A DNA stretch of 64,000 bases. It comes from Candidatus Latescibacterota bacterium. GTDB lineage: Bacteria > Latescibacterota > UBA2968 > UBA8231. A program made the translations under genes and the position numbers. Positions within the stretch are counted from its first letter, which is position 1, and each line of letters starts with the position of its first letter. Below the pieces are notes generated by a model. The model was not told the DNA's origin and did no database searches. It worked only from the letters and a program-made list of their open reading frames with translations. Shown piece after piece: positions 8,693-55,291 of this stretch. The DNA is taken from assembly GCA_965248355.1 (NCBI GenBank), contig OZ252098.1, positions 3,456,001 to 3,520,000 on the forward strand, written 5' to 3'.

Positions 8693-8720
8693 TCGGCCGC
8701 AGGCCCACGGGCGAGGCGGG

Positions 8721-36697: not shown

Positions 36698-37402
36698 CTA
36701 GCCATTCGGCCCGGGAGGCGTTCCAGCAAGTTCCAGCCAGCGCCGGAAGTGCGGGCATGCGGACCGAATCGCGTCGAGCCCGACTTGGATAGAGGCCAAG
36801 CTACCCATCAACGGCTTTTGATACCCGGGCACAAGCTCGGCCACGCGCTTCGAAGGTGCAGTGTCCGGCGAGTCATCGATTTCTTCCGGACTGGCGAATT
36901 GGTCTCGAATCTCCTGGAACCTATGTGTCAGTTCGGGGCGCCCGATTCCTTGGCCGAATCGGTCACAATCACTGAATAGCAGGGCTTCGAACTCGTGCAT
37001 TGCCACATACGCTATGAATCGCTTCTGATCGAAGTCCGAGCCCATTTCAAAGGCGATGTCCTTCGAGAGCGCATCTTCGACTGTGGACGCTCTCTCCGAT
37101 GAAGATCCGTGCCTGGTAGCTTGCAGGCGCCCAGGCCATGCCCTTGGACCAGTTTCCGGCATCCCGTAGTAGTCCACCATTGTGGTGGCAAGGCACCCTG
37201 GATCTTCCTTCAGGTGATTTGCGATCTCCCTTCGCACCGTGCTCCACGCCCTGGCTCCGCCACGCCGGTCCCGCTGGCGAGCGTTTCCAACCAGACGTGC
37301 GCCGACTCTGGAAAACCCATGACCATAGAGATGCGGCGCCAGCAGTTCGTTGACGAATTGCTCTTCGGTCTGGCCCTCGACATGGACAAGCAGCCGGTTC
37401 AC
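36698..37402 (-). CDS. DUF4276 family protein (TOPRIM-like partner of AAA ATPase)
   Basis: GTG 37402 overlaps the ATPase stop (GTGA); 'LVHVEGQTEEQFV', 'TTMVDYYG', 'MHEFEALLFSD', 'PEEIDDSPDTAPSKR', 'CPHFRRWL'. Confidence 0.85.
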   Translation of the reverse strand: MNRLLVHVEGQTEEQFVNELLAPHLYGHGFSRVGARLVGNARQRDRRGGARAWSTVRREIANHLKEDPGCLATTMVDYYGMPETGPRAWPGRLQATRHGSSSERASTVEDALSKDIAFEMGSDFDQKRFIAYVAMHEFEALLFSDCDRFGQGIGRPELTHRFQEIRDQFASPEEIDDSPDTAPSKRVAELVPGYQKPLMGSLASIQVGLDAIRSACPHFRRWLELAGTPPGPNG

Positions 37403-38932
37403 GGTGAGAATCCACGGTTGTCCTCCTGCGAAGGACGTCCGCCGATTTCGTTCTTTTCCCAAAGCTGACCCAGGCTGTACTCCTCCAACCAGGCTGCGAG
37501 GTTCTCGCCGTCCAGCCTTCGGAGCGTCGTTGCCCCCTCCACTCGGTCGGCCACGATCACGTCTTCTGGCTCGAAATGATCCAGCAGCACCGGCGACTGC
37601 GTCGCGACGATGATCTGCGATTCCACGGACGCCTGCTTCAGCATGGAAGCCAGCAGAGTGATGGCAAAAGGATGCAGTCCCAGCTCCGGTTCATCCAGAA
37701 GAACTACGGAAGGCCGAAGCGAAGCCGGCTGAAGCAGGAGAGTGGTCAAGGCGATGAACCTCAGCGTGCCGTCGGACAGGGATGACGCGTCGAAGTAGGC
37801 GTCCGATCCGGAATGCCGCCATTCGAGACGGATCGTGGCTTCGTTCAGAGCCTGAGGTTCAAGGGCGAAGTCATCAAGGAAGGGCGCCGCCAATTGAACG
37901 GTGCGAAGGATCTGCGTGTAGGATCCGCCATGCTTCTCTCTGAGAAGAAACAAGAACGCAGCGAGATTCGAACCGTCAGGGCGAAGGTACCGATTGTCAT
38001 TCACCTCGGCGGTCGCTTTCATCGGCGACGCAGAGCCGGTGTCGTGAAAGTGGTAAAGCTGCAAACCTTCGATGAGTCGGCGAACGTGCTCCGGCGGTAG
38101 AGGATAACTCCCTGAATCGTCCCAATTCACTTGCCCTGTTTTCTCGCCAGGGAGACCAGACGGATGGTAGCCCATGATACCCACAAAGAGCCCATCGGAA
38201 TCGTTTCTGCCCAATTCGATTGCATACCCGGCCCTGTCTTCGTCAAAGGAGACTTGCATCTCGAGTTTTGAGGTCGGGCAAGTCCCATTCTCAGTTGAAA
38301 CGTAGCCCAGGCTCGAGTGGATGAGTCAGCCCGTCATCGCGAGCTGCTGGATGCCGAGTTCGGCTTGGAGCGCTTGCCGGAGCATCGGCAGGTGGTGGTA
38401 GCCGTTGACCCGGCGGAGGCGAGGTTCGATGTCAAGCAACGCCGTGGCGACCCAGCGGTGACGCTGCGACGAGTTGGTCCAGCGCCGCACGTTGTGCGTC
38501 AACTGCTCCAGGAGACTGTTGACGTTCTCGATACAGTTGGTGGTACGGAAGGAGGCCTTCAGCATCGGCATCAGGCCCAGGCGGTGGAGCGTGAGGGTTT
38601 CTTCCTGGCCTTCCTCCAAGCTGCGCAGGGCCGACTGGTTCATCAACTGCAACCCCGGTTTCAGCGCCTCCAGGGCGGCTTGGGCCTCCTCGTACGTCGA
38701 GTGCCCATACGCCGCTTCCAGCTTTCGACGAAGGCCGGCCTGCTCGCTCTTGGGCAGGTACGAGACCACGTTCTGGCGCTTGTGATACTGGCATCGCTGC
38801 ACGCAGGCATGGCCTTGAAGCACCGACCGCACCGCCTTGTACACCCTCTGGTTGCATAAGAACAGGGCTTTTTCCTCCTCCGAACGGCCCATTGTCACTT
38901 GCGGCGCCCTCTGAAAAAGGGGTATTTGATAC

Positions 38933-40488
38933 GGGTGTAGCCTCGGTTTTACGCAGCCGTCTTGTCGGTCTGTTGTGTAGTCTGATGGAGGTACCAGTTC
39001 CAGAAGGCCTCCCATCGTTGGGATTGCACGTGGACTCGTAGATTGAGGATCTGCTGGCCTCCTTGGCGGGTCCAGCGCATGCCGCTGCGTTTGAGTCGAT
39101 GGCCGACCAGGGTCTTGGCGGCGGCCTCCACGGGACCACTGGAGAGGATCAACCCCGAAGCGCGATAGCGCGCGTAGTCCATCTTGTCCCGGTTGTTCCG
39201 GAAGTAGCCCAGCTCGGTGGTCACCTGACGATGGCGTTGGGAGCCGGGACGAAGGTTGCGGCGGTGGTAGGCCAGGGAGCGGATCAGGCCCTGAACGGCC
39301 CCGGGCTCATGACGCAGTTTGTGCCGCCAGGATCGGTACCAGCGAGCCGCTTTCGACGACCGCTTGCCGAAGAGGGGCTCGGCGGCCTTTGACAGGTGGT
39401 GGGCCGCGTGATAGAAGTCGAGAATCCGGGTGAAGCCGTCGAACACCGGCTGCCGATCCACGCTGCGCCAGATCTGGCGCTGGCCGTCGGCCAACACCAC
39501 CCGGTGGTCATACTCCCCCCGCTGCAGGGCCCGGGCCGTCTCCTCCACCAAGCCGTGGACCAGGGTCTTCATCTTGGGCTCCGGCATGCGCGCGGCGTAG
39601 CGCACATCGACGCGTTGGGGGTCTTCCGTCGCCGGGTCCAGCGGCGTCCCATACGTGGCGACCATCCCTACCCCGGCCTCCTTCCAGGCGGTGGGCGCGC
39701 GGTCGGGGTCGGGATCCGTCGGTCGTTCGGCGGGCCGTCCGCGTTTCGGCGCCGGCTCCCGCAGCGGCACGGTGACGCCGTCCCAACTGACCACCAGGGT
39801 GTCGCCCTCGGTCTTTAGGGGCGCCGCCTCCTGCAAGGCCAGCTCGAGTTGCTCGGCGTGGTCCTCGGCGTACTGACCGACGGTGGTCAACAGATGCTGA
39901 ATGGCGGTGCGCGACGGGGACGCCGGCAACAGCTCGGCCAAGCTGGCCTCGACTTCGGCCGGGACCAGGCGGGCGCCCAGAAAGGCCGTGAAACGCTCCA
40001 GCGCCGGCACCATGAATCGGTGGACCATGCCGCAGCGCTCATCCAAGGGCACCCGGCTGGGGCCGCCCCGATCGGGCTGATACAGCCGACGCGGCACCTG
40101 GACCTTGCCCCACAGGGTCATCCATTCCTTGTGGACCACTTGCTTGAACCGGTAGACCCGACCGTGGTGGACCACGGTGTCGTCGGCGATCTCGCACGCC
40201 TGCGCCAGCCGTTGGAAACCGATTCGACCGAGGTCGTCCAAAGCATCTCGCAACTCGCTCACCCTCTCGCGAAAGTCCTCCGGGCCGGCCTCCGGGGATT
40301 GCGGGCGATGCTCCCACTGGAGGACATTTTCCTCGAACTTTGTCAGGCGAGCGTGAAAATCCTTCGTATCTTCCATCAGGGACCCCTTTCCGGGTTTGGG
40401 CGTAAGTCCTTACACCCAAAGATACATTCGTGCCCGGACTTGGGGTCCCCCTTTTATCGACAATCTGCGTAAAGTGAAGGCTACACCC
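38933..40488 (-). mobile_element. ISKra4-like insertion sequence (innermost; 1556 bp)
   Basis: 24-bp TIRs GGGTGTAGCCTCGGTTTTACGCAG / GGGTGTAGCCTTCACTTTACGCAG; 8-bp TSD TTTGATAC at 38925-38932 and 40489-40496. Confidence 0.9.
38949..40376 (-). CDS. ISKra4-family (UPF0236-like) DDE transposase
   Basis: 'VSWDGVTVP', 'LADGQRQIW', 'LDFYHAAHHL', 'SGPVEAA.K..VGHRLKRSGMRW'; stop codon lies inside the TIR. Confidence 0.88.
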   Translation of the reverse strand: MEDTKDFHARLTKFEENVLQWEHRPQSPEAGPEDFRERVSELRDALDDLGRIGFQRLAQACEIADDTVVHHGRVYRFKQVVHKEWMTLWGKVQVPRRLYQPDRGGPSRVPLDERCGMVHRFMVPALERFTAFLGARLVPAEVEASLAELLPASPSRTAIQHLLTTVGQYAEDHAEQLELALQEAAPLKTEGDTLVVSWDGVTVPLREPAPKRGRPAERPTDPDPDRAPTAWKEAGVGMVATYGTPLDPATEDPQRVDVRYAARMPEPKMKTLVHGLVEETARALQRGEYDHRVVLADGQRQIWRSVDRQPVFDGFTRILDFYHAAHHLSKAAEPLFGKRSSKAARWYRSWRHKLRHEPGAVQGLIRSLAYHRRNLRPGSQRHRQVTTELGYFRNNRDKMDYARYRASGLILSSGPVEAAAKTLVGHRLKRSGMRWTRQGGQQILNLRVHVQSQRWEAFWNWYLHQTTQQTDKTAA

Positions 40489-40541
40489 TTTGATACTGTC
40501 GACCAAGACATGTATCGACCCCTTTCAGAAGGACACCGCAA

Positions 40542-41915
40542 GTGAGGTTCAGAAAAGAAGACATTTTGGCCCGTTTTCACAAGCTCCCGCATCTTCGCTT
40601 CGAGGATCAACAGCTGACTTCCTTTGCGGGAGCCATCGTTTTTCAACTGCTCTTCCGGCGCCTGGATCTGAAGACTCGGCTGAAGTCGTGCTTCCCCGCC
40701 AAGAGCTCCGCGATCTTTGGTCCCCATCTCATGGTGTTGTTGCTCATCGTGCATCTGCTGCTGGGCTTCCGGCGGCTGCGAGACATGGACTATTACCGGG
40801 ACGATCCGGTGGTGCTGCGTCTGTTGGGCTTGCGCCGCCTGCCGGACGTGGCCACCCTCAGTCGCGCCCTCGCAAGAATGGGCCGTTCGAGTATCGAAAA
40901 AGTGCGCCACCTGTCTTCGGTCCTGGTGGTGCAGGCGCTCCAGCGCGAGCGGTTCCCCCGTCTGACCCTCGACTTCGACGGCTCGGTGATCTCCACTTGT
41001 GGTCATGCCGAAGGGACCGCCGTGGGCTATAATCCGAAAAAGAAAGGGGCGCGCAGCTATTACAACCTGTTCTGTACGGTGGCGCAGACCGGACAGTTCT
41101 TCGATGTCCTTCACCGCCCCGGCAACGTCCATGACAGCAAGGACGCCCATGCGTTCATGATGGACGCCTTCGATCGGGTGCGCGACGCGCTGGCGCCTAC
41201 CGTGCTCGAGTCCCGACTCGACAGTGCCTTCTTCAGCCAGGACACGCTCACGCTCCTGGACCTGTATGGCGTCGAATGCACGATCAGTGTCCCTTTCGAA
41301 CGCTTCCCCGTACTCAAGGACCAGATCGAAGCGCGCCAGCGCTGGCGCTTTCTCGATGAACACTGCGCCTATTTCGAGAGTGACTGGAAACCCCAACGCT
41401 GGCCCGCCTCGTACCGATTTCTCTTGGTCCGCCGTGCGGTCGCGCGTCAGACCAAGGAACCGCTGCAACTGGATCTGTTCGAACCCCGGCCCATCGATCA
41501 TGAGTACCGCGTTCTGGTGACCAACAAGAGGATCTCGGCCCGCCGCGTGCTCCTCTTCCACTATGGCCGCGGCGCCCAGGAAGGGATCTTCGCCGAGGCC
41601 AAGCAACAGGCCGGGCTGGATCTGATCCCCACCCGGCGGCTGCTCGGCAACCAGATGGTGACTTTGTGTGCGATGATGGCCCACAATCTGGGACGCGAAA
41701 TGCAGATGCGGGCGCAGGCGCGATCCAACTATTCGCGCGCCAAACGCCCGGCGGCGTGGACCTTCCAGACCTTGGACACTCTGCGTCATCGCTTCATTCA
41801 GCGCGCCGGGCGCCTCACTCGGCCCAAGGGCGAGTTGACCCTGACCCTGAACTCCAATCCAAAAGTGGAAAAAGATCTGTTGCATTTCCTCGAAACACTG
41901 AAGGATGCCGCCTGA
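40542..41915 (+). CDS. IS1380-family transposase
   Basis: 'LTSFAG', 'TLDFDGSV', 'RPGNVH', 'SRLDSAFF', 'GRGAQEGIFAEAK', 'TLRHRFIQRAGRL'. Confidence 0.9.
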   Translation: MRFRKEDILARFHKLPHLRFEDQQLTSFAGAIVFQLLFRRLDLKTRLKSCFPAKSSAIFGPHLMVLLLIVHLLLGFRRLRDMDYYRDDPVVLRLLGLRRLPDVATLSRALARMGRSSIEKVRHLSSVLVVQALQRERFPRLTLDFDGSVISTCGHAEGTAVGYNPKKKGARSYYNLFCTVAQTGQFFDVLHRPGNVHDSKDAHAFMMDAFDRVRDALAPTVLESRLDSAFFSQDTLTLLDLYGVECTISVPFERFPVLKDQIEARQRWRFLDEHCAYFESDWKPQRWPASYRFLLVRRAVARQTKEPLQLDLFEPRPIDHEYRVLVTNKRISARRVLLFHYGRGAQEGIFAEAKQQAGLDLIPTRRLLGNQMVTLCAMMAHNLGREMQMRAQARSNYSRAKRPAAWTFQTLDTLRHRFIQRAGRLTRPKGELTLTLNSNPKVEKDLLHFLETLKDAA

Positions 41916-43055
41916 TCACACCACCGCCTTCAAACAGATTTATGCAACGTTAGGGTACAGGCCCTTGCCTCCATCGATCACCACGAGCAGCCCGGCTTCG
42001 TATTGCAGGCCCCGCTCGACCAGCTCCGCCAGGAAGCGGCGACAGACGCGCTCGTTCTCGGTGGCCGCCTGCACGAAGCCCAAGGGCACCTTCTGGCCCT
42101 CCAGAGTCACACCCAGGGCGATGAGGATCTCCTCGTCGGCGAAGCTCTTGCCGTCCAGAAACAGCGCCACCAGGTCGTAGCCTTCCAAGGATCGCTGCTG
42201 GAATTCGGCCAGCTTGCGCGCCGTGCCTTTCACGTACCGGCGAGAGACCGAGGAACGGGACAGACCGAAGGCTTGCGGGACGGTCTCGGCGCAGGCCTCG
42301 TAGTTGCGCGTGGCCAAGCCCTTCAGCACCCGCAACAACAGCCCCTGGTCCATCTGCCTCGGCGTCTGCAGGGCCTGATAGGCCTCCAGCGGGACCTCGG
42401 TGCCGCGGACCACATCGCGCACGCGCGGCACCTCGACCGGCAGTTTCTGATCGCCCAGGTACACCGACCCGGCCTGCGCCCCCCAGCGGCGCAACGCCTG
42501 ATCCGGACCCTTGCGCTGATACCGAGGTCCGGCCAAGGCCTCGACCGACTGCTGCAGCTCCTCCGAGACCGCCTGCAGACCCAAAGGGATCAGCAGCTGG
42601 ATGACCTCGATGCGAGTCTCCAGATCGTCCATCGACGCGGTGGCTTGGCGGTTCACGGGGCCGATGGCCACGGTCCGTTTGACGCCCTTCTTCCGTGCTT
42701 GTAGCTTGCTCATGGCAGGCTCCTTGGGTTACCGATACGAGGCTTCTTGGGGATTTCTCGTATCAAACGTAACGATGGGAGCCTGTGCTATTTCAACTAA
42801 GATCGGGACAATGCCTTGAGGTCGCCTTGGACCCGAAGTGCAGGATCCTGTCGGCTCCGCCCGCTTGTTTGACGTAGCGTTCCAACTGCCCTTGCACGAT
42901 AGTGCGCAAGAACGAGATGGCATCAATGAAGTTGGACTTGCCCGATCCGTTAGCCCCGATAAGCACGTTCAGAGGACGCAGCTTCAGCATGGTATGGCCA
43001 ATGCTCTTGGACCCTTCGACTACAACCCCATCAAGTCTGGACATGGCTCGTTTGC

Positions 43056-45995
43056 CTACACCCGGAACACCTTCATCACCTCGTCCCCGAGGTGGTTGAT
43101 CACCTTCACCGCGATCCGGCCCGACGCCGGCTTGGGAAAAGGCCGGGAGGTGTCGCTGTGCAGGGTCTCCCAGGCTTCCTGGTTGATCTCGGCCTTCAGC
43201 GTCGTCCGCAACGCCTTGTAGGGATCGCTGGCGCCCAGGAAGTAGGCGTGGCGGACGAAGAAGCTCTCCTCGTTGTAGTCGCTGTCGACGAACCAGCAGG
43301 CGATGCCGTCGGCGTTGTCGCTGCGGATTTCTCCGGTGTTGGGGTGGAACACGTCGACGCCGTTGACCTTGACCTGGATCTGTCCGTCCTCTGCGTCGAG
43401 CAGGTCGATGTCCGGCTCGCCGAAGATGACGAAGAGGTTGCCCTTGCCGGTGTTCTTGAGGTCGTCGGCCATGTGGAGGTCGGCGTTCATGCGCGCCTTG
43501 AGGACCGGGACGCGGCCGAGCTTGCTGAACTCCGAGGCGTGGGCGTCGTAGTTGAAGGCGCAGGCGACCAGCACGTCGAAGTCGGCGTCGGCGGCCTCGC
43601 GCACCGCCGACACGAGATCGGGGCGCGAGACGGTGCCGAACTCCGGGCCGATGAAGATGCCGGCGCGTCTCTGGGGCCCGGAGTCGCCGTTGCCGTCGAG
43701 GTAGGTCCCCTCGGCGCAGACGAGGTCGCCGGGCCAGGGCCTGATCCCGGAGAAGGAGATGCGGTCCTCCTTGTGGGCCTGCTGGACGCCGGTGGTCTTG
43801 AGGTTGTCGAGGATCATCCCGGCGAAGTCCTGCTTTTCGCCGTACCCAAGGCTGGCTTCGGCGATGTTGTCGATGAGCTCGTCGTTCTCATTGACACCGA
43901 GCAGGCGGTGCGGAGAGAGGCTCTCCACGGTGAAGGGACCGGCGACGCGGACCTTCCTGTTGTCCTCGTAAGGCTTGTCGTAGAGGTATTCGTAGTCGGC
44001 CTTGGCGGCGATGGAGGCGTCGATCTCCTTCTGCCGGGCGATGCGCTCCTCCCACCAGAGGCTGTGAAGGTCGGATGCCTCCGCGGCCCAAGGGTCGCGC
44101 GGCTGGGCGGGAACGTCCTCGAGGGCGTACTCCCGGCCCAGCGCCCTGTTCAACTCGCGCAGGGCCGAGGACTTCTCCCCGTCCGTGCGCGCGGCCTGGA
44201 CCCTGCCCCAGGCCCGGGTGGCCGCCTCCGGCCACGGGTCACCCACCTCCCGGGGAATCTCCCACTCCTCCCACTCCTGGTACAGCGCCGCGTTCAGCTC
44301 TTCCCTCAGCGGCTCCAGCCTCTCCTGGAACTTCTCCCAGATCACGTCGATCTCGGCGTTGTTGGCGATGGACTTGAGGGTGATGTGGGGGACGCGCTCG
44401 TACACGAAGCCCTGGCGGATGTCGTTGTACGTGGGCGCTTCCGAGGGGGCCTTGCGGGAGATCTCGCCTTCCTTGACCTGGCCGTCGCGGCTGTCGGCGA
44501 GCAGGTAGTAGGGATAGCGGGCGCCCATGATGCGGGCGCGGGCGAGCGCGAGGGCGACGCGGGAGGTGTCGATGGTGATCCAGCGGCGGCCCCACTGCTC
44601 GGCGACGTAAGCGGTGGTGCCGGAGCCGCAGGTGGGGTCGAGGACGAGATCTCCGGGGTCGGTGGCCATTAGGATGCAGCGTTCGACAATCTTGTGCGCG
44701 GTCTGAACGATGTAGAGCTTATCACCGCCCACGCTGCTTCCAACATCTGACCAGATGTTGGTAATTGCCTTCACAGGAAAATCTCGGATGAAACGGACAT
44801 AGTTCAGAGTTCTTCTCCCCTTCATTAAGCGGTTGGCAAATAATAACCGCCTCATGCCCTCTTCATTTGTCTTCCATCGAGCCTTAATGCTTGGTCGAAT
44901 CTCTGCACCCTCAATGGATACGGGAAACCAAGACGCAGCCCCCTCACCTTTATCACGCCCCATGCTCTGGCTTGTCATGTCACTTAGACGAAAGTAATGA
45001 CCTTCGGATAATTCGAGCCCTTGACGCACAGCCTCCATCTCACGCAATCGTTGCCCGTCAGCAAACTCTATGAACTGATATGCCTGCCCACCCGAGCCAC
45101 CCGGCGCTTTCTCAAGGTGTTGAGTACGATACTTTAACTGTCGATGATCTTTTGCATACCATAGAAGGAAGTCAGCGGTGTTTGACAGGTAATCCTGAGT
45201 CGAACTACTCGTTTTCGTGACAGTAATCAGACTTACAAAATTGCCGTCACCCATAGTTTCGTCCAACAACGCCCGCACCCGATGCACATTCTCGTCCCCA
45301 ATCTGCACGAAGACCGACCCGCTATCAGTCAACAAATCCCGCGCCACCGTCAGCCGATCCCGCAGATACGTCAGATACGAATGAATCCCGTCCCGCCACG
45401 TATCTCGGAACGCCTTCACCTGCTCCGGCTCGCGCGTGATGTGCCCGGCGTTGCCGTCCTTGACGTCGCGGCTGGTCGTTGACCACTGGAAGTTGGAGTT
45501 GAACTTGATGCCGTAGGGCGGGTCGATGTAGATGCACTGCACCTTGCCGCGCAGCCCTTCCCGCTCCGCCAAGGACGCCATCACCTGCAGGCTGTCCCCG
45601 AGGATCATCCGGTTCGACCAGTTGGCGTCGTGCTGGTAGAACTCCGTCTGCGCGTCCCCCGCCGGCAGCCCGTTGAAGTCCGCGAACAGGTCGGCCTGGT
45701 CCTCCATCTCCCTGGTCCGCTGCCGCAGGTCGTCGATCAGGACCTTCGGATGCACTTTCTCCTGGATGAACAGCGGCGGCGCCTGCACCACCAAGTCCGA
45801 CCAGTCCTGCTCGTCCTTGCCGCGCCAGACAAGCTGCGGGTCGAGGTCCGGGTTGCGCCGCTCATACGCGACCCTGACCGGATTGCGGTCGTCCTCCGCC
45901 ATCACCGCCTGGTACTCGGCCGTGGGGATGTTCTTCCGCGATGCCTCCTGGTGCCGCAGGCTCTCGACGGTCTTCGTCGACTTTCGTTTCGTCAT
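43056..45995 (-). CDS. mod: Type III restriction-modification DNA methyltransferase (Mod, beta-class N6-adenine)
   Basis: Catalytic 'IYIDPPY', SAM motif 'VLDPTCGSGTT', central variable region; linked to res. Confidence 0.92.
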   Translation of the reverse strand: MTKRKSTKTVESLRHQEASRKNIPTAEYQAVMAEDDRNPVRVAYERRNPDLDPQLVWRGKDEQDWSDLVVQAPPLFIQEKVHPKVLIDDLRQRTREMEDQADLFADFNGLPAGDAQTEFYQHDANWSNRMILGDSLQVMASLAEREGLRGKVQCIYIDPPYGIKFNSNFQWSTTSRDVKDGNAGHITREPEQVKAFRDTWRDGIHSYLTYLRDRLTVARDLLTDSGSVFVQIGDENVHRVRALLDETMGDGNFVSLITVTKTSSSTQDYLSNTADFLLWYAKDHRQLKYRTQHLEKAPGGSGGQAYQFIEFADGQRLREMEAVRQGLELSEGHYFRLSDMTSQSMGRDKGEGAASWFPVSIEGAEIRPSIKARWKTNEEGMRRLLFANRLMKGRRTLNYVRFIRDFPVKAITNIWSDVGSSVGGDKLYIVQTAHKIVERCILMATDPGDLVLDPTCGSGTTAYVAEQWGRRWITIDTSRVALALARARIMGARYPYYLLADSRDGQVKEGEISRKAPSEAPTYNDIRQGFVYERVPHITLKSIANNAEIDVIWEKFQERLEPLREELNAALYQEWEEWEIPREVGDPWPEAATRAWGRVQAARTDGEKSSALRELNRALGREYALEDVPAQPRDPWAAEASDLHSLWWEERIARQKEIDASIAAKADYEYLYDKPYEDNRKVRVAGPFTVESLSPHRLLGVNENDELIDNIAEASLGYGEKQDFAGMILDNLKTTGVQQAHKEDRISFSGIRPWPGDLVCAEGTYLDGNGDSGPQRRAGIFIGPEFGTVSRPDLVSAVREAADADFDVLVACAFNYDAHASEFSKLGRVPVLKARMNADLHMADDLKNTGKGNLFVIFGEPDIDLLDAEDGQIQVKVNGVDVFHPNTGEIRSDNADGIACWFVDSDYNEESFFVRHAYFLGASDPYKALRTTLKAEINQEAWETLHSDTSRPFPKPASGRIAVKVINHLGDEVMKVFRV

Positions 45996-46367
45996 CTATA
46001 CGGAGTCCTCGTTGGTCGTACTCAGCAGGGTTCGCAACTCTGGCAGCAGATCTGGAATCGCATCTTGAATGAGTGTCCAGATGATACCGTTACTGATGCT
46101 CAGATAGCTGTGGGCCAAGCGGTTGCGCGTCCCCACAATCGCATGCCAGGGAATGTCCTGGTACGCCTCACGCACCTCGCTCGGAATATGGGTTGCTGCC
46201 TCGCCGATCAGTTCCAGATTGCGCAGGGTGGCGTCATAGGTGAGTCCATCCGCGATGAACGCGTCCTGATCCAGGCCCTCGGTATAGGTCAGCACCTTCT
46301 CGCTGAATTCGATCATGTCCTGAACGTAGAACCGCCATTCTCGCGCTCCTTGCTCAGCATCAGACAT
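45996..46367 (-). CDS. HEPN (DUF86/HepT-like) ribonuclease toxin
   Basis: 'RNLELIGEA' and RX4HXY motif 'RNRLAHSY'. Confidence 0.9.
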   Translation of the reverse strand: MSDAEQGAREWRFYVQDMIEFSEKVLTYTEGLDQDAFIADGLTYDATLRNLELIGEAATHIPSEVREAYQDIPWHAIVGTRNRLAHSYLSISNGIIWTLIQDAIPDLLPELRTLLSTTNEDSV

Positions 46368-46650
46368 TGATCACCTCCCGCTCCACGTAGGGGCGAATCT
46401 CGGCGCGAAGGTCCTGATTGGTTGCCAGGTCCACGGGCCGCCCTAGTAGCTCTTCCAAGTAGCCTTGAGCTCCGAAATAGCGTTGCCAATTTGGGGGCAT
46501 GCCGAACCGCACCAGGACGTCGACGTCGCTGTCGTCGGTAGCCTGGTCACGCGCGAAGGAACCGAACAGGGCGAGTTCGGTGACGCCAAAGCGTTCGGAG
46601 AGTGTCGCCTTGTGGGTTCTGAGCACCTTCAGGACTTCATCCCTGTTCAT
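46360..46650 (-). CDS. Minimal nucleotidyltransferase (MNT/MntA-like) antitoxin
   Basis: GSX10DXD motif 'GSFARDQATDDSDVD'; ATG 46650 with RBS GAGGG; overlaps the HEPN start. Confidence 0.9.
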   Translation of the reverse strand: MNRDEVLKVLRTHKATLSERFGVTELALFGSFARDQATDDSDVDVLVRFGMPPNWQRYFGAQGYLEELLGRPVDLATNQDLRAEIRPYVEREVINV

Positions 46651-46681
46651 TGACCCTCTCCCTTCCGTGCCAGTCGTCGGA

Positions 46682-46870
46682 TCATCCGATCCGTGGAACG
46701 GCGAGGTTCGCGCAGATCTCGCGGACGAGCAAGTTGTCCACTTCCACGTGGCGCGGAATGGCCGTCTGCCGGTCACCACGAGCGTTCTGCCAGATCGAAT
46801 GCCGGCGACCTGCGCGTAACAGCGTGCAGCCGTGCCGCCGCAAATGCCTGAGAAGCGTCGTGCGCTTCAT
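46682..46870 (-). CDS. hicA: HicA family mRNA interferase toxin
   Basis: 62 aa, 'GRRHSIW', 'IPRHVEV'. Confidence 0.88.
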   Translation of the reverse strand: MKRTTLLRHLRRHGCTLLRAGRRHSIWQNARGDRQTAIPRHVEVDNLLVREICANLAVPRIG

Positions 46871-47076
46871 GCAACGGAGATCTTTGCCGTCTCATAGCCG
46901 TCCCCGGCCGCCGATCGGGCCGCCTGGCGTCTGATCTCCAACATCTCCCCGAGCGTGACGGCGAGCGTGTCCACGAGCTCTTCGCGGGTGCGTTCCTGGC
47001 AGGTCACGCCGGGTACTTCCTGGATCCAGCCGATCCACCATTCGCCCCTGCGATTCACGATTGCCGTGTATTCCAT
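46867..47076 (-). CDS. hicB: HicB family antitoxin (short, no C-terminal DNA-binding domain)
   Basis: 'YTAIV..GEWWIGWIQEVPGVTCQERTREEL'; ATGA overlap with hicA. Confidence 0.88.
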   Translation of the reverse strand: MEYTAIVNRRGEWWIGWIQEVPGVTCQERTREELVDTLAVTLGEMLEIRRQAARSAAGDGYETAKISVA

Positions 47077-47311
47077 GTTCGTTCCTCTCTCGACTTCTGA
47101 ACTTCCTCACTGGGCATTGGAGTTCCCTTGGCACTTCCGACGCCTCTCTGTCCCCTCTCGCAATTTGTCAAGTGCCACGGTCTTTCCGGTGCAAAGGTGG
47201 TGCTGTATTCCGGAGCCGAGTGGCTAAAGCCTGGTGGTCTGTTCCTACGCACCATTTGCGCGACCTCCTCTCTCAGATTTTGGGGCGCTGTACCCGCCAC
47301 GGAGTGGCTAG

Positions 47312-50300
47312 TCATTCGCTGGCCTGGATCTCCACTTCGGAGCGAAGCTCCTCAACCAAACGATTGAACGCAGCTTCCACCTCGAAGACATCCGTAAACT
47401 CGGCAAATACCCAGCGCCCGTAGTCCCCGTGGTTGTTCACCCCGGGGACCCAGTAGGTGTCCATGGTCGCCTTCTTGTCCCTGGCGTCCTCCCCCCGGTA
47501 GCCCTTGATCTCGACGACCAGGTGCAGGAGATCTTCCTCGCCTTGGCCGTCGTCGACGAGGACGATGAAGTCCGGCAGGTAAGTCCGCGTTTCGGAGCCG
47601 GAACGGTAGGGGACCTCCAGGCCGAGGTTGTGGTTCTTGACGTAGGCCCTGACCTGCGGGTGGGACTCGGCGACGCGGCAGAACTCCGCCTCCCAGTCGC
47701 TGTCGAGGACGACCCAGTTGATGTGGCAGCGGCGGGAATCGGTCTGGTACCGGCTGGTTTTGGTGGTGGTGAAATTAACGTGGGCCGTGGAACCGACGGG
47801 ATTGTATGGATCGAGTACGGCCTTGACTGGGCGACGGTCAATTCCCGCTTGCGTGATGGCCGCGGCGATGCGCTCGCAGGCCGTGTCGGCCAGTTCCTGG
47901 TACATGAGTTGGGCGGGATACGTGCCCCCCTTGCAGACGAGATAGCCGTTGAGCCACTGCCTGGTGATCCGCTTGAGCTGTCCGAAGAGATGGAGCTTCG
48001 GCTCCTCGCCCGGGTCGCGGTATTTCGTGTAGAGGAGGCGCTGGGTCAGGTGGAACAGCAGGGTCGAGGTCCGCAGGCCGTCGGTGTGAACGAGGTTCAG
48101 GTCGACCCCCTCGCCGATGATCCCCTGGTTTCTCGTGATCGAGGGACCGACCACTTCGGGGGTCAAGCTGAACTCCGAGACTTCGTTGAACTCGGCTTCG
48201 AGCCGGTCCTCCGGCAGCTCCACCCGGTACCCGGCCACCCGGGGGAAACGGATCTCCAGCGCGTCTCGTTCCGGGCGCACCGCCCGCACGTGGACCGTCG
48301 GTCTCGGCGGCTTCGCCGGGGCCAGGACTGGCTTGGCGGTAAAGTCGAAGGGGATCCCCAAGACGTCGGCGTACTCGACGTCGAACAGGCCGTCTTCGTT
48401 GAGGTCGTATGACTGCCGCCGCAGGGCGCGGCCGACGACCTGCTCGCAGAGCAGCTGCGTCCCGAAGGCACGGACGCCGAGCACGTGGCTGACGGTGTTC
48501 GCGTCCCACCCTTCGGTCAGCATCGACACCGACACCACGCAGCGGATCGAGTCCCCGAGCCGATCCTCCTTGCCGACGGTGTTCATGACCTCCCGGAGGA
48601 GGTCCTGGTCGGTGATCTTCTCCGCCTGGCGGAGGTCGCCGGTGCGCTCGACGATCTCCCTGCGGAAGCGCTCGATCTCGTCGGCGGCCATGTCGCGGAA
48701 GTTCCTGTCCAGCGCCTCCCCGGACTCCAGCTGCTCGCTGTCGATCAGAAGGGTTCGGGGCCTCGGGAGTCGAGTGCCGTCCTCGTCGAAGTTGCGGAAC
48801 AGCTCGAGGCGCCCGTTCTCCAACGTCGTCGGGCGGTTCTCGTTCTCGCGGTGGAAGCCGGAGATGTAGTCGTAGACCAGCTTGGAGGTCGAGGTGTTGT
48901 TGCAGACGATGATGAAGCAGGGAGGCACGGAAATGCCGGCCTCCTGCATCATTTCAAAGGTTTTGCGGTAATGGCCGTACAGCGCCTCCAGAGCGGTCTG
49001 CAGCTCAACGGGCAGGCTCAGGGGATCGAGGTGACTAACCTTGCCCCGCCCCTTCTTCGGCATGTCCTCGCGGATATGCTCCCACAGGTTGCGGAACTTC
49101 GGCATGTCGCCGCCGGGGATGTTGTCGGCCACCGGCACCCGGGGCAGCTTGACGATGCCGCACTCGATGGCATCCATGAGCGAGAAATCGCACATCGTCC
49201 ACGGGAAAAGGGTGCCTTCGGCGTAGCCGGACCCGCGCAGAAAGAAGGGGGTCGCCGAGAGGTCGAATACCCGGTTGATGCCGAGCTTTTCGCCGACGGT
49301 TTCCAGCCCCGAAATCCACAAGCGGGCGGCCTCCGTGTTCTTCTCGGCCTCCTTCCTGTCGTCTCCCTTCAGCGTTTCTTCCTCGACCTCTCCCGGCTTC
49401 TCGCGGTAGCAGTGGTGGGCCTCGTCGTTGAGGACGAGGACGTTCTTCATGCCCATGAGCTCCGGCATGACCCGCTGCAGCATCTGCCCCTCGGTCTCCA
49501 GGGTCGCCAGCGACTCGCCCCGTCCCTGGAGCAGGGAACGGCCCCCCTTGGACAGCTCCATGCGCTCGCGCAGCTTGAAGGCGTGGTAGTTGGTGATGAC
49601 GATCTTCGCCTTCTCCAGGTCGGAGCGCATGTCGTTGGGGACCAGCTCGCGGCCCTGGAAGTAGCTGTCGGGGTCGTTCGGCTGCAGCACCCGCAGGCGG
49701 TCCTTGATGGTGATGCCCGGGGTGACGACGAGGAAGCCGCGGGTGAAGCGGCTGCTCTGGGGCCGGCGCACCGCGTTTATGGTCTGCCAGGCGATCAGCA
49801 TCGCCATGACCGTGGTCTTGCCGGCGCCGGTCGCCAGTTTGAGGGCCAGCCGCGGCAGGTCCGGGTTGGCCTCTTCGTTGGCGTTGGCCAGATGGTCGAG
49901 GAAGTCGCGGCCGGCACGCGCCCTGGGCGCCACCTCGGTGAGCCAGATGGCGGTCTCGGACGCTTCGAGCTGGCAGAAGAAGGGGCGGATGCCGCTGAAG
50001 TGGTGGTGCCGCCAGTGCCGGAGCAGGCGGGCTGTCTCCGGGGTCACCTGCCACTGGGCCTCCGGCAGCTCGCGCCAGCGGTCGACCTGCTGGCGGACCC
50101 CGTTGATGATGGCGGTCAGGTCGTACTGCTGGCCATCGGTCCCGAGCTTCTGGGCCTTCTCGTCGAATACGAGCCTGGCCTGCTGCGCCGAGCCTTTGCG
50201 CTTCCGGGGCTTCGGGATCGGCGTGATGAACTCCGCCTGCCGGCGGCTCTCGATGGTCTTATGGGTCGGCTGCCCGGTCTCGTCCAGCTCCCATTGCCGG

Positions 50301-50356
50301 GACGGCCGCTCGTAGGGAGAGTTGAGAATTGGTCCTTTGAAGAAAGCTTCAGTCAT
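47312..50356 (-). CDS. res: Type III restriction endonuclease Res subunit (SF2 helicase + PD-(D/E)xK nuclease)
   Basis: Walker A 'LATGAGKT', 'NDEAHH', 'LSATP', 'MLTEGWDA', 'EQVVGRALRR', nuclease 'PDFIV...VEIKG'. Confidence 0.92.
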   Translation of the reverse strand: MTEAFFKGPILNSPYERPSRQWELDETGQPTHKTIESRRQAEFITPIPKPRKRKGSAQQARLVFDEKAQKLGTDGQQYDLTAIINGVRQQVDRWRELPEAQWQVTPETARLLRHWRHHHFSGIRPFFCQLEASETAIWLTEVAPRARAGRDFLDHLANANEEANPDLPRLALKLATGAGKTTVMAMLIAWQTINAVRRPQSSRFTRGFLVVTPGITIKDRLRVLQPNDPDSYFQGRELVPNDMRSDLEKAKIVITNYHAFKLRERMELSKGGRSLLQGRGESLATLETEGQMLQRVMPELMGMKNVLVLNDEAHHCYREKPGEVEEETLKGDDRKEAEKNTEAARLWISGLETVGEKLGINRVFDLSATPFFLRGSGYAEGTLFPWTMCDFSLMDAIECGIVKLPRVPVADNIPGGDMPKFRNLWEHIREDMPKKGRGKVSHLDPLSLPVELQTALEALYGHYRKTFEMMQEAGISVPPCFIIVCNNTSTSKLVYDYISGFHRENENRPTTLENGRLELFRNFDEDGTRLPRPRTLLIDSEQLESGEALDRNFRDMAADEIERFRREIVERTGDLRQAEKITDQDLLREVMNTVGKEDRLGDSIRCVVSVSMLTEGWDANTVSHVLGVRAFGTQLLCEQVVGRALRRQSYDLNEDGLFDVEYADVLGIPFDFTAKPVLAPAKPPRPTVHVRAVRPERDALEIRFPRVAGYRVELPEDRLEAEFNEVSEFSLTPEVVGPSITRNQGIIGEGVDLNLVHTDGLRTSTLLFHLTQRLLYTKYRDPGEEPKLHLFGQLKRITRQWLNGYLVCKGGTYPAQLMYQELADTACERIAAAITQAGIDRRPVKAVLDPYNPVGSTAHVNFTTTKTSRYQTDSRRCHINWVVLDSDWEAEFCRVAESHPQVRAYVKNHNLGLEVPYRSGSETRTYLPDFIVLVDDGQGEEDLLHLVVEIKGYRGEDARDKKATMDTYWVPGVNNHGDYGRWVFAEFTDVFEVEAAFNRLVEELRSEVEIQASE

Positions 50357-50402: not shown

Positions 50403-51212
50403 TCAATCCCAGGGATCCACCCCCGCCAGCTTCCGCCCAAGGCTGGTCAGCTCGGCCGTCTTCCCTTCGCGGGCCTCCCGTTCCTCGGCGTAGCGCCCCA
50501 GGCCGGACAGCCGCCGCTGCCAGAAGTCCGTGCGCTTCCGCCGCGCCTCTTCGCCATCGCCGGCGGGACCCATGGTGATGTACTGGGCCACGCGGGGACT
50601 GTCGCCGCGGTTGAGGCTCGCCGTGTGCGGCAGGGCGGTACGCCAGATGACCAGGTCCCCCGCCTCGGCACCGATGCGCCGCGTTCCCAGGGCCAGCAGG
50701 TCCTGCGCGCGGGGATCGGCCCCCTCCGGCAACTCGTCGAGCCACGCCTCCAGGCGCTGGTGGAACCCGGGCACGCAGACGAAGGCGCCCTGCTCGGCGG
50801 GCGTGTCGTTCAGATAGAGAACACCCTGCACGCCAAATGACAACGGACGGTTATCCAGGGACGCGTCCCAGTGCAGACCGTGCTCGGGCGCATCCTTGTC
50901 CGGGGCCGGCGGACTGATGCTGGCCCGGTCGTGGCTGACCCACAGCTTGTCCGTGCCCCAGATCTGGCTGAAGGCCCGGTGGACCCGGGGGGCCGTGCGG
51001 TTGTCCCACATGGTCTGGTGCTGGTAGATCTCGACCATGATGCCGGGCCGGTCCTCCGGGTACCAGGTCCCGGGATCGTCCGGGTCCATGCCCGTGAAGG
51101 CCCACACCGCCCGCGCGGTGCGCTCCGCCTGGTCGCGGTCGATCACCTGACGAGCGACGACATACCCCTGTTCGGCAAAGGAATCGAGCTCTTCACTGCT
51201 CAGGACATCCAT
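50403..51212 (-). CDS. Phytanoyl-CoA dioxygenase (PhyH) family protein
   Basis: 'LHWD', 'QGVLYLND', 'GAFVCVPGFH', 'AGDLVIW...PH...N...PR'. Confidence 0.9.
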   Translation of the reverse strand: MDVLSSEELDSFAEQGYVVARQVIDRDQAERTARAVWAFTGMDPDDPGTWYPEDRPGIMVEIYQHQTMWDNRTAPRVHRAFSQIWGTDKLWVSHDRASISPPAPDKDAPEHGLHWDASLDNRPLSFGVQGVLYLNDTPAEQGAFVCVPGFHQRLEAWLDELPEGADPRAQDLLALGTRRIGAEAGDLVIWRTALPHTASLNRGDSPRVAQYITMGPAGDGEEARRKRTDFWQRRLSGLGRYAEEREAREGKTAELTSLGRKLAGVDPWD

Positions 51213-51293: not shown

Positions 51294-51977
51294 TCAGGGC
51301 CCTGCGGCCTCGGGTCTCTTCGCCAGCTGTTTCAGGACTTCCCTCTCCAGTTCCTCGTAGTCGATCTTCCCCGTCCACTGGGCCACGATCCGGCTCTCTC
51401 CATCGAGCAGATACATCGCCGGAATCGCCTTCACCTTGAACTGGTACCAGGCGGGCGTCTCTTTGGCGTCCACAAAGATGGGATAGGTGATCTCCAGCTT
51501 GCCCACCATCCTCCTGATCTTCCTGACCCGGTTTTTCTCTTCGTCGATGGACACACCCCACACGTCGAACCCCCTGTCGGAATAGGCGCCGTGGAGCTCC
51601 TGCAACCGGGGCATCGTCTCGAGACAGGGCTTGCACCATGTGGCCCAGAAATCCACCAGCACGACCCTGCCCTTCATGTCCTCCAACGCCATGTCCCCGC
51701 CGTCCAGCATTTCAACAACGCAGTCTGGTGCGGGTCGTGGAAAGACCGGTGGCAGGTAGGCCACGGGATCCGAGTCGAACTCCACTTTGCACTCTTCAGA
51801 GCAGAAGTAGTACGCCTTCCCGTCATGTTCCGAATGGGCCTTGACCTTCTCCAACTCCGTCTCGCCCCCTCTCAGTGCACAGACAGTGCAAAGGGCCTTG
51901 TCGGGAACCTGGACTTCGGCCATAAGCGCGGCCGAACCCGCCAGGACAATCGGAAACAGGAACCTCCAGTAGCGCAC
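51294..51977 (-). CDS. Exported YHS-domain + TlpA-like thiol-disulfide oxidoreductase fusion
   Basis: Signal peptide; 'CTVC' and YHS 'GKAYYFCSEECKVEF'; redoxin 'VDFWATWCKPC', cis-Pro 'AIP'; RBS GGAGGA directly after the upstream stop. Confidence 0.9.
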   Translation of the reverse strand: MRYWRFLFPIVLAGSAALMAEVQVPDKALCTVCALRGGETELEKVKAHSEHDGKAYYFCSEECKVEFDSDPVAYLPPVFPRPAPDCVVEMLDGGDMALEDMKGRVVLVDFWATWCKPCLETMPRLQELHGAYSDRGFDVWGVSIDEEKNRVRKIRRMVGKLEITYPIFVDAKETPAWYQFKVKAIPAMYLLDGESRIVAQWTGKIDYEELEREVLKQLAKRPEAAGP

Positions 51978-51986
51978 GGATCCTCC

Positions 51987-52655
51987 TCACCAGAATCCAA
52001 GAGAAAGGGAGAGGCCCATGGTCTCGAGCCACACATACATCAGGCTGACACCGTATTGGGCGGCGAAATAGTTCAGCAACAGATGTCCCCGGTCGCCATC
52101 GTACATCGGTCGAAGTGAAAAGCCCTTGCCCAGTTCAACCCCCGCGCCAACGGGGAGATTGAACTTCCCATCCCATTCCGAATAGTTCAGACTGCCGTAG
52201 AGGGACGTGCGCACCCAGGGTATGTACTTGCTGACAGTGGCGAACCAGGACTGCTCTCCCGCCGGCGAGCCGATTCGATCCGAGCTCGTGCCCAGGAAGA
52301 GCGCAGGACGCCTCTCCGTCTCGGTCAGCAGGAACAGGGTCGCAAGCGGTCCCGCCTCTCTGGCCTTGGGATTCACCTCGACGCCGACCTGCAGGCGTTC
52401 GTGCAGGCGGTAGTTGGCGGTGAACCGCCACTGGGGACGGTCCATTGAGGTATCAACATACCGTCCCGATAGCGTGACCTTCCTGTGAATGCCGCTCCCC
52501 CGGAGCGGTGCGCCTTCGCCGGGTCAGCCCACTCAGGTGGGCGTCATCGAGAAGACCGGCCGTTCGCTCCGCGTAGAGTCCTCTGGCGCTTCCAGGGCAA
52601 GGACAGGCGACGTGCCCAGGTATGGGAATAGAAGAAACAGGAGACTGAATCTCAT
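51987..52655 (-). CDS. Candidate double-selenocysteine (UxxU) outer-membrane beta-barrel protein, 222 aa
   Basis: ATG 52655 with RBS GGAG; signal peptide MRFSLLFLLFPYLGTSPVLA; in-frame TGA at 52535-52533 and 52526-52524 (T-U-V-G-U-P); same frame as ORF 51987-52445; amphipathic strands ending GLSLSLGFW. Confidence 0.72.
52492..52508 (-). promoter_or_regulatory. Putative bacterial SECIS hairpin
   Basis: mRNA CCGCUCC-GGG-GGAGCGG (7-bp stem, G loop); loop starts 22 nt after the second UGA and 31 nt after the first. Confidence 0.6.
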
Positions 52656-52686
52656 CAATGATGCTCCGCTGTGTGGAAGAGTCCGT

Positions 52687-54214: not shown

Positions 54215-55291
54215 TCAGCCGCTGCGCACGACGATGTCGCGGTCGGCGCCGGACAGGGGCAGCTCCACCCAGGCGCCGCCGGCGCGGTGGGAGGCGTGGA
54301 AGGCGACGATCGCCTCCAGGGTGCGCACGGCTTCGGAGGCGTCGTAGGAGAACGGCCCCGCCCCGTCGAGCCAGTCGACGATCTCGGCCACGGCGCGGTC
54401 CATGCCGCTGTCGGCGGAGTCGTCGGGCAGCAGCTCGCGGTCGTCGCCGCGCACGATCTCGATGTCGCGCTGGCGGCAGACGGCGTAGCCCTCGGTGCCG
54501 TGGTAGCGGTGGCGCGCCGGCGCGGTGCCGTAGTCGGCGCCGTCAACCGTGCAGATCAGGTCCCCGCTCGGCCCCTCGCCGTCCCAGGGCAGGTCGCGCC
54601 CGAGGCGCAGCAGGCCCCAGCCGCCGGGATCGGCGAAGTCGGACCCGCGGCAGTCGGGTTTCCCCGACAGGTCGAGGGTGCCCGAAACCGCCGTCACCGG
54701 CAGGCCGGTGACCATCTGCAAGCCGTCGAACTGGTGCGTGCCCACGTTGCCGAGGCGGCCGGAGGTCCACTGGAGCGAGGCCGAGGTCAGGGTGCCGAGG
54801 GCGCCTTCGGCGATGCGGTCCCGCAGCTTCCGGTAGCCGGGGTGGAAACGCAGGTTGTGGTTGACCAGCAGCAGGGTCCCGGCCCTGGCGCAGGCGGCCA
54901 GCATCGCCTCGGCCTCGGTCAGGGTCGCCGCCACCGGCTTCTCGCAGTAGATGGCGCGGACGCCTGCTTCCACCGCCGCCTCGGTGATCTCGGCGTGGGC
55001 GGGGGTGTAGGTGGCCACCGAGAGGATGTCGAGGGGCGCCGCCTCGCGCAGCATCTCGCCCCAGTCGGCGAAGACGGGCGCCCCGTAGCTGGCGTGGAAG
55101 CGCTCCCGGCGGCCCTCGTCGCGGCTGCTGCCGCCGACCACATCGACCCGGGGGTGGCCGCGCAGGGCCGCCACGTGGGTGCCGTCGAGGTCGACCACGC
55201 GCTGGCCGACGCCGTCGCCGGAGACCTGGTCGGCGCCCCCGATGAAGCCCAGCCCCACGATCGCCGAGCGGTACCTCGTCTCTGCGGACAT
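54215..55291 (-). CDS. Gfo/Idh/MocA family oxidoreductase
   Basis: 'IVGLGFIG', 'IYCEKPVA', 'NVGTHQFD'. Confidence 0.9.
   Translation of the reverse strand: MSAETRYRSAIVGLGFIGGADQVSGDGVGQRVVDLDGTHVAALRGHPRVDVVGGSSRDEGRRERFHASYGAPVFADWGEMLREAAPLDILSVATYTPAHAEITEAAVEAGVRAIYCEKPVAATLTEAEAMLAACARAGTLLLVNHNLRFHPGYRKLRDRIAEGALGTLTSASLQWTSGRLGNVGTHQFDGLQMVTGLPVTAVSGTLDLSGKPDCRGSDFADPGGWGLLRLGRDLPWDGEGPSGDLICTVDGADYGTAPARHRYHGTEGYAVCRQRDIEIVRGDDRELLPDDSADSGMDRAVAEIVDWLDGAGPFSYDASEAVRTLEAIVAFHASHRAGGAWVELPLSGADRDIVVRSG

Follow-up and report, generated by a model that had tools for sequence, protein, structure and literature searches.

Gene structure at the locus

On the minus strand of a 64-kb stretch of the Candidatus Latescibacterota bacterium genome (assembly GCA_965248355.1, contig OZ252098.1, positions 3,456,001 to 3,520,000), the gene at positions 52655 to 51987 most likely encodes a single exported beta-barrel protein of 222 residues in which two in-frame UGA codons are both read as selenocysteine (Sec), as judged from the recoding pattern together with the architecture of the product. 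The whole stretch of 64,000 nucleotides is called the window below, and coordinates refer to it unless a homologous locus is named. The gene is one 222-codon frame from an ATG (52655-52653) to a terminal TGA (51989-51987). Its only internal stops are the TGA of codon 41 (52535-52533) and the TGA of codon 44 (52526-52524), around which the sequence reads MTPT-TGA-GTG-GGC-TGA-PGEG, that is, MTPT-TGA-V-G-TGA-PGEG. An earlier reading of the DNA, made from its letters without database searches (the sequence-only reading), had described these two codons as the sole interruptions of the frame, and the translation of the window bears this out.

Table 11 and the public gene calls give an open reading frame (ORF) of 152 amino acids at 51987-52445, which starts with MDRPQWRF, has no hydrophobic N-terminus and carries no export signal. 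The sequence-only reading extended it by 70 codons to the ATG at 52655. All the elements that it proposed for this extension were found: the open frame, a GGAG motif resembling a ribosome-binding site 8 nt before the ATG (52664-52667, minus strand, read directly from the sequence), and a hydrophobic, signal-peptide-like N-terminus in codons 1-20 (MRFSLLFLLFPYLGTSPVLA, 52596-52655, cleavage site placed by eye). The upstream part is also conserved in homologues. The read-through gene joins a signal peptide, a tail with a U-x-x-U motif and a predicted 12-stranded barrel.

A hydrophobic stretch after an in-frame start, as scored with a Kyte-Doolittle heuristic, is present in 78 of the 80 readable copies described below. 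The exceptions are loci L012 and L058. In L012 (6019-6618), the frame is already closed 19 codons ahead of the first UGA and the downstream hairpin has mismatches, as might be found in a pseudogene or after an assembly error. In L058 (5893-6570), the hydrophobic segment is present while a standard in-frame start codon is lacking.

Conservation of the two TGA codons

Homologous loci were collected by scanning one genome per species, which produced 206 pattern matches and 183 confirmed relatives, the best 80 being kept. The 80 readable copies consist of 79 of the 80 fetched loci plus the window, locus L027 being cut off by the end of its contig. TGA occupies both positions in 80/80 readable copies, and TGC, TGT, TGG, TAA or TAG was found at neither position in any of them. 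The window and 79 of the 80 loci share the consensus motif PT-TGA-x-[G/A]-TGA-PGEGAPLRGSG. The frame is kept in 79 loci, and the first TGA and the true stop are exactly 181 codons apart in 74 of 79.

All 80 loci come from metagenome-assembled genomes (MAGs), which by the submitters' labels represent more than ten phyla. Poribacteria account for 22 loci, Latescibacterota for 17, Acidobacteriota-type genomes for 10 (Thermoanaerobaculia 6, Acidobacteriota 3, Holophagales 1), Eisenbacteria for 8, Gemmatimonadota for 6 and Calditrichia for 2; 8 are unclassified, and Krumholzibacteriia, Planctomycetota, Deferribacteres, Fibrobacteraceae, Cytophagia, Deltaproteobacteria and Multivoradales have one each. 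The window barrel is 77-78% identical to the copies in the Gemmatimonadota-labelled MAGs L010 and L015, and the cassette formed by the barrel gene and its downstream partner (51294-52655) has a GC content of 0.59-0.62 versus 0.66-0.73 on the flanks. The low GC content or the similarity to Gemmatimonadota could indicate horizontal transfer or binning errors.

The residues that are invariant before (P, T) and after (P, G, E, G, A) the TGAs are each encoded by 3-4 synonymous codons, and on either side of the TGAs as well as between them the protein sequence is conserved while the codons vary synonymously. This variation at invariant residues indicates that all segments are translated and are under purifying selection at the protein level. 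The pattern of TGA codons is, on this comparison of sequences, far beyond chance. A pseudogene or sequencing errors would account for little more than the presence of the stops and for one locus, L012, that looks damaged. The recurrence of the same two codons in 80/80 copies from independent assemblies, with purifying selection throughout, makes such an origin hardly credible and agrees with the sequence-only reading, which had argued that single indel errors would not keep both sides in one frame.

The true stop of the 80 copies is TGA in 36, TAA in 30 and TAG in 14. TGA is therefore not globally reassigned but is also a working terminator of the same genes. In the window, 23 of 41 large ORFs (chosen greedily, some perhaps spurious) end with TGA, and so does the barrel gene itself. 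The earlier statement that there is no global recoding of UGA is in line with both counts.

If the two internal TGAs were true stops, the locus would consist of a 40-codon leader peptide and an independent protein of 152 amino acids, the conserved stretch between them being a regulatory RNA. The gene callers agree with such a division. The read-through query retrieved 708 database proteins or clusters at E<=0.01 in a word-indexed search, and 118 of the best 120 homologues are 130-166 amino acids long, starting at various residues just past the second TGA. This is also the outcome expected of gene callers if the stops are conserved, and it extends to the family the earlier suggestion that annotation truncates the gene. 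The window sequence taken alone, moreover, has a stronger alternative fold of the region. However, the amino acids between the second TGA and the first Met after it do not change, whereas the third positions of their codons do, which is a signature of translation. The position of the downstream start is not conserved, the database entries beginning at several residues, and the short form would leave the barrel with no signal peptide. In addition, the relatives with cysteine described below are continuous through the motif. Two true stops are accordingly regarded as quite improbable, and read-through of both codons remains the preferred reading.

Relatives with cysteine or tryptophan at the motif

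A profile of 49 read-through sequences was compared with 1.84 billion representative proteins, and 229 proteins were found at E<=0.001. Among those inspected, eleven representatives (P0146, P0148, P0151, P0152, P0154, P0158, P0164, P0165, P0170, P0179 and P0224) are continuous through the motif with [PA]T-C-A-G-C-A, and both Cys residues fall in the UGA columns (PT-U-x-G-U) in an alignment of six of them. In P0207, the motif is S-C-A-L-C. The sequence-only reading had looked to homologues with Cys or a conserved TGA at positions 41 and 44; the family contains both kinds.

The Cys-type sister subfamily (PTCAGCAGEA) is like the Sec type in its barrel, in the position of the dithiol motif and in the invariant R65, R77, E93, D126-R127 and P168, while the overall identity between the two types is 25-30%. 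Unlike the Sec type, it has AGEAR after the motif in place of the hairpin-encoding PGEGAPLRGSG. This difference would be expected if PGEGAPLRGSG is shaped by the hairpin that it encodes. The two types are also linked to YHS domains in different ways, the Cys type by fusion and the Sec type by gene neighbourhood. No Pfam family was found for the Cys-type barrel. The motif is wholly absent in further relatives, e.g., P0134, P0145, P0163, P0230, P0234, P0251, P0253 and P0254, and the barrel family is thus wider than its part bearing Cys or Sec.

The Cys-type relatives also suggest that CxxC is functional in this fold, which bears on another reading of the UGA codons. As described in the relevant passages of PMC13582414, tRNA-ReC decodes UGA as Cys given a downstream selenocysteine insertion sequence (SECIS). 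SECIS-dependent insertion of Cys by such a tRNA (SelC*-like) at one or both UGAs would produce CxxC or a mixed Sec/Cys pair. If plain Cys were inserted, however, TGC and TGT would be neutral at these positions, yet neither occurs in the 80 copies, and the strict retention of TGA is hard to explain. Insertion of Cys is considered unlikely, although it has a better chance than the other alternatives to Sec.

Tryptophan stands at both positions in three database proteins (P0030, P0068 and P0220). Such entries, which the sequence-only reading had named as evidence that would count against Sec, seem to favour decoding of UGA as Trp by a near-cognate tRNA-Trp or after a local change of the code. The second UGA is, moreover, always followed by C, and UGA-C may be a leaky context. 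However, P0068 is 98% identical (229/233) to locus L076 (5854-6552) when this is read with table 4, and both sites are TGA in the DNA of L076. The contigs of P0030 and P0068 are only 1.0-1.5 kb long. The W residues are therefore best explained as artefacts of table-4 gene calls, as is shown for P0068 and is presumed for P0030 and P0220. TGG is found in 0/80 copies, the same genes end with TGA in 36/80, and the relatives carry Cys rather than Trp. With these observations, insertion of Trp appears very improbable. Table-4 gene calling on short contigs can disguise selenoproteins as Trp proteins. A divergent protein, P0132 (PACVGWPGEG), reads Cys and then W at the two positions and may, by its sequence, be a CxxU intermediate read with table 4.

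The downstream hairpin

The sequence downstream of the TGAs forms a SECIS-like hairpin, CCGCUCC-GGG-GGAGCGG (52492-52508, minus strand, loop 52499-52501), within the codons for A-P-L-R-G-S-G. It begins 15 nt past the second UGA and has a 7-bp stem, and its loop lies 22 nt downstream of the second UGA and 31 nt downstream of the first. The apical loop of 3 nt is GGG or GUG, i.e., it begins with GG or GU. In an ungapped alignment of 79 sequences, the seven pairs are formed in 98.9% of the cells, a value reached in 0/500 shuffles, and pairing drops to 29-70% when the 3' partners are slid by 1-3 columns. Pair 42/54 (Pro3/Ser3) is G-C in 50 sequences, G-U in 14 and A-U in 10, being unpaired in 3; pair 45/51 (Leu3/Gly3) is C-G in 51, U-A in 24 and U-G in 1, being unpaired in 1. 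Both of these covarying pairs join third-codon positions, so that the compensatory changes fall on synonymous sites. The same helix was predicted independently by RNAalifold, and the isolated hairpin has an energy of -12.6 kcal/mol.

Codon choice is restricted in the hairpin. The residues P-L-R-G-S are each encoded there by 2-3 codons with an entropy of 0.64-0.94 bits, whereas the same amino acids at other invariant sites mostly have 1.2-2.1 bits. Leu is only CTC or CTT, Ser AGC or AGT, Arg CGG or CGT, Gly GGG or GGA, and Pro is CCG or CCA except for two CCC codons.

The rules for bacterial SECIS elements set out in the relevant part of PMC13188914 are a loop of 3-9 nt with G within the first two positions, a stem of 4-16 bp, a distance of 16-37 nt from UGA to loop and an energy of -7.5 kcal/mol or lower. 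By direct comparison, the hairpin agrees with all four rules. The sequence-only reading had invoked a 3' hairpin for the decoding of UGA as Sec, and a covarying 7-bp hairpin is indeed present downstream of both TGAs. Rfam returned nothing at gathering scores across the window and gave matches only at chance level around the site.

A further hairpin was seen by eye at 52527-52542 (minus strand). In copies of the V-G type (Latescibacterota-like), the first UGA is placed in a 4-nt loop, GCCCAC-CUGA-GUGGGC, with apparent compensatory CCU/GUA changes in some copies. This hairpin is absent from the S-G and S-A types and was not predicted by RNAalifold.

Predicted fold and family assignment

Codons 60-222 (51990-52478, minus strand) are predicted to form a 12-stranded beta-barrel ending with GFW. 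The AlphaFold2 model, based on a 49-sequence alignment, has a mean predicted local distance difference test score (pLDDT) of 84.8 and a predicted template modelling score of 0.81; its 12 long strands span the construct between residue 28 and the C-terminus. No regular structure is modelled for the 27 residues ahead of them, which include the Sec pair and have a pLDDT of 57-76. All the Foldseek matches listed from the PDB at E<=0.001 are transmembrane barrels, namely outer-membrane proteins and one designed barrel. The top matches include FapF (5o68, E 1.7e-5), VhGalP (8xua), KdgM (4fqe, template modelling (TM) scores 0.56/0.62), NanC (2wjr, TM 0.52/0.49), OEP21 (7bgh) and the designed 12-stranded barrel 9fdg (TM 0.57/0.60), all of which we take to be 12-stranded. 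The C-terminal residue is Phe in 75/80 copies, the window protein ending with F-W. The sequence-only reading had recognized a barrel with an aromatic end in the amphipathic strands, and the model, the Foldseek matches and the conserved terminal residue point in the same direction. The barrel is accordingly assigned to the outer-membrane type with 12 strands as a prediction only.

The likeness to the KdgM/NanC, VhGalP, FapF and OEP21 channels is confined to the predicted fold; the sequence identity to the Foldseek matches is 7-14%, and there is no sequence-profile or Pfam match. None of these channels is known to have a Cys or Sec pair in an N-terminal tail. A profile search of the PDB sequences found nothing. 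Pfam gave no family for the window barrel protein and only single stray matches (E 0.06-0.26) for the 49 members, and NCBIfam gave none for the read-through protein at E<=0.01. Membership in KdgM/NanC or another Pfam barrel family was rejected, as neither the window protein nor the 49 members had a significant profile match. Membership in YjbH (PF06082) was likewise rejected, with 0/49 members matching at E<=5, and the YjbH-type resemblance suggested by the sequence-only reading is not supported. A language-model look-alike search of the Atlas gave leads only: a cluster automatically named "DUF3570" scored 0.98, and a YjbH cluster stood at rank 9 with 0.95. Neither DUF3570 nor YjbH was matched by Pfam in any of the 49 members.

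The YHS-TlpA partner gene

The gene that starts 9 nt after the barrel stop (51294-51977, minus strand) encodes a protein of 227 amino acids with a signal peptide, a YHS domain and a TlpA/ResA-like thioredoxin fold with the site WATWCKPC. The assigned domains are YHS (Pfam PF04945, C-x-x-C ... F-C-S-x-x-C), AhpC-TSA and Redoxin, the NCBIfam ResA/TlpA match being below its cut-off. There is no in-frame TGA in the partner gene. A tblastn search found it in the window as well as in 53 of the 80 loci. The match begins at most 150 nt past the barrel stop in 50 of 53 cases (52 barrel-bearing loci and the window). The displaced partners lie 1.8 kb downstream of the barrel copy in L002 (copy at 8463-9143), 304 nt downstream in L020 and upstream in L068 (copy at 879-1523). 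The partner was not found in L036, L044, L052 and L080, nor in the Poribacteria loci considered below; L005 ends too early to tell. No variation was seen in the WATWCxPC site or the four YHS cysteines among 44 partner sequences.

In five of the seven long Cys-type relatives scanned, 1-3 YHS domains are fused ahead of the CxxC-barrel. The gene neighbourhood of the Sec type and the fusion in the Cys type agree, which suggests that the Cys or Sec pair of the barrel works with a YHS domain (TRASH-type, presumed to bind metal). No other neighbour was found to be conserved across phyla by clustering of ORFs in the 80 loci, a procedure that is noisy in GC-rich genomes.

In Poribacteria loci (e.g., L031, L042, L043 and L062), a GFO/IDH/MocA-like gene lies just upstream of the barrel gene (15 loci), and a PhyH-like gene, whose ORF cluster spans 29 loci, is shared as well; these labels rest on resemblance to annotated window genes and on reading of the sequences rather than on Pfam. 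In the window, PhyH (50403-51212) and GFO/IDH/MocA (54215-55291) genes also lie nearby.

Proposed mechanism and function

In the preferred reading, with Sec at both positions, SelB and tRNA-Sec would decode UGA 41 and UGA 44 via the single hairpin 22 and 31 nt downstream. The product would consist of a signal peptide, a flexible tail of about 40 residues with Pro-Thr-Sec-x-Gly-Sec-Pro-Gly-Glu-Gly and a compact 12-stranded outer-membrane barrel. In even-stranded barrels, both termini face the periplasm, and the Sec-bearing tail is therefore placed at the periplasmic mouth of the channel. The Sec pair could provide a two-ligand site of very soft character there or work as a diselenide/diselenol redox couple, the diselenide bond itself being an inference. 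The partner would keep the pair reduced through its thioredoxin domain and, through its YHS domain, exchange a thiophilic metal, e.g., Cu(I) or Hg(II), with it. The periplasmic TlpA-type reductase of Bradyrhizobium, which acts on the Cys pair of its partners ScoI and CoxB, offers an analogy. The association with YHS suggests metal handling as a function that has somewhat less than an even chance of being correct, and a purely redox role is a less probable alternative. It may also be imagined, as a tentative extension, that the proteins form an obligate double-Sec family of outer-membrane channels in which a diselenide/diselenol gate or a soft-metal trap stands at the mouth of the 12-stranded pore (or the tail threads the pore like a miniature autotransporter) and is serviced by the YHS-thioredoxin partner.

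Several observations weigh against this reading or narrow its basis. Both patterns used in the scan (GTSSDRIGS and the NYSEW motif) are subfamily-specific, and the count of 80/80 applies to the best 80 of 183 relatives and not to the remaining 103. The close subfamily yielded no form with Cys; relatives that have it are distant, at the 25-30% identity given above, and are known as protein sequences only. The 60 nt of the window from the first UGA, folded alone, adopt a different minimum-energy structure from which the conserved hairpin is not recovered and whose stability does not exceed that of shuffled sequences (z -1.18), and support for the hairpin thus rests on comparative evidence. The compared sequences are related, so the shuffle control overstates its significance. 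The placement of the motif at the pore is an extrapolation, as the tail is modelled at a pLDDT of 57-76 only. By tblastn, none of the 22 Poribacteria loci has the partner gene. Finally, selA, selB, selD and tRNA-Sec were not found in the 64-kb window, including a Pfam scan of 31 further ORFs; the Sec genes were sought in this window only, and the Sec competence of the organism is thereby unproven.

By the usual computational criteria, the gene would rank as a selenoprotein gene predicted with high confidence, though not as a proven one.

Comparison with known selenoproteins

Table 1 of a 2026 review lists 119 families of prokaryotic selenoproteins (PMC13188914), and no row of this table fits the barrel protein. 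UxxU motifs occur there in a Prx-like family, the metal-binding protein NF041115 and the FmdB family. Sec-type UXXU group 4 [NiFeSe] hydrogenases are reported, together with selABCD frequencies, in phyla including Poribacteria and Acidobacteriota, and one SECIS is proposed to serve both of their UGAs (relevant passages of PMC13582414). All these proteins likewise have two UGAs three codons apart that align with the CxxC of Cys homologues, and one downstream hairpin is proposed for both codons, according to the passages concerned (PMC13188914, PMC2398784, PMC13582414). They are unrelated to the barrel in sequence (no Pfam or NCBIfam match), and the motif of the window gene is located in the tail of a membrane barrel, in contrast to the thioredoxin fold, metal-binding domain or hydrogenase of the known UxxU proteins.

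The sequence-only reading knew of no characterised outer-membrane barrel with such a motif; the wider statement that no outer-membrane barrel selenoprotein is known is outdated. Two are predicted in the review table, the GSU2204/MtrB-PioB family (NF041027) and an FCYXU TonB-dependent receptor (NF049945) (PMC13188914), neither of which is the barrel family described here. They are also outer-membrane barrels with predicted Sec; however, they are large and have one Sec each, whereas the present protein has a 12-stranded barrel of about 160 residues and two Sec. The NCBIfam models NF041027 and NF049945 do not match the read-through protein. Replacement of Cys by Sec in soft-metal pairs is listed in the same table for MerT-like proteins, a cation ATPase, CopZ-like proteins and SO_0444 efflux proteins (PMC13188914). 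These have no homology to the barrel, for which metal binding is suggested only by the YHS association.

Full-text literature searches found no description of the barrel family; supplementary candidate lists (e.g., those of the deep-Sep and groundwater-MAG surveys cited in PMC13188914) may hold it. It is not described in the pertinent passages on BSepDB (PMC13326102) or of the Global Ocean Sampling (GOS) study (PMC2398784) either. As there is no Pfam or NCBIfam match, no place among the 119 families and no description in the literature searched, the barrel would be classed from its sequence as a new selenoprotein family with a known decoding mechanism, unusual in its envelope location and its double Sec.

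If the assignment is correct, every public gene call seen for the barrel family is wrong, as it either is cut down to the barrel or has Trp in place of Sec. The family has 708 clusters in the database searched (E<=0.01), and relatives occur in the genomes of 183 species. It would be added to the approximately 119 catalogued families as a rare two-Sec case that is located in the envelope rather than in a cytoplasmic redox enzyme. The gene brings no new decoding mechanism; it does supply a compact natural UGA-x-x-UGA-SECIS cassette for studying how one hairpin serves two codons. The use of selenium would also be tied to an uncharacterised barrel, YHS and TlpA module in a number of little-studied phyla, many of which are MAGs that lack a cultured representative. 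If, further, the tentative double-Sec channel exists, the envelope trafficking of Cu, Hg or chalcogen would depend on selenium in Latescibacterota, Poribacteria, Acidobacteriota, Eisenbacteria and Gemmatimonadota, and one bacterial SECIS would routinely decode two UGAs 9 nt apart.

Other features of the window

ARAGORN found no tRNA or tmRNA in the window or in the 60 loci L001-L060, about 640 kb in total. This is fewer than expected, though the loci are homologous neighbourhoods and not independent samples. A rough scan for TGA-joined frames based on GC content at third codon positions gave no other selenoprotein candidate in the window, the three sites detected being ordinary same-frame gene boundaries.

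An apparent defence or mobile island lies directly downstream of the cassette on the minus strand (36698-50356). It comprises DUF4276 and AAA_21 genes (36698-38259), two Mutator-transposase fragments (38326-39015 and 41940-42713) flanking ORFs at 38949-41885, an N6/N4 DNA methylase (43056-45995), a toxin-antitoxin pair of the HepT/nucleotidyltransferase type (45996-46779) and a ResIII helicase (47312-50356) that also has an endonuclease domain. Farther away on the same strand, an ORF of 2425 amino acids (8759-16036) contains a Peptidase_C25 (gingipain-type) domain at residues 1159-1510.

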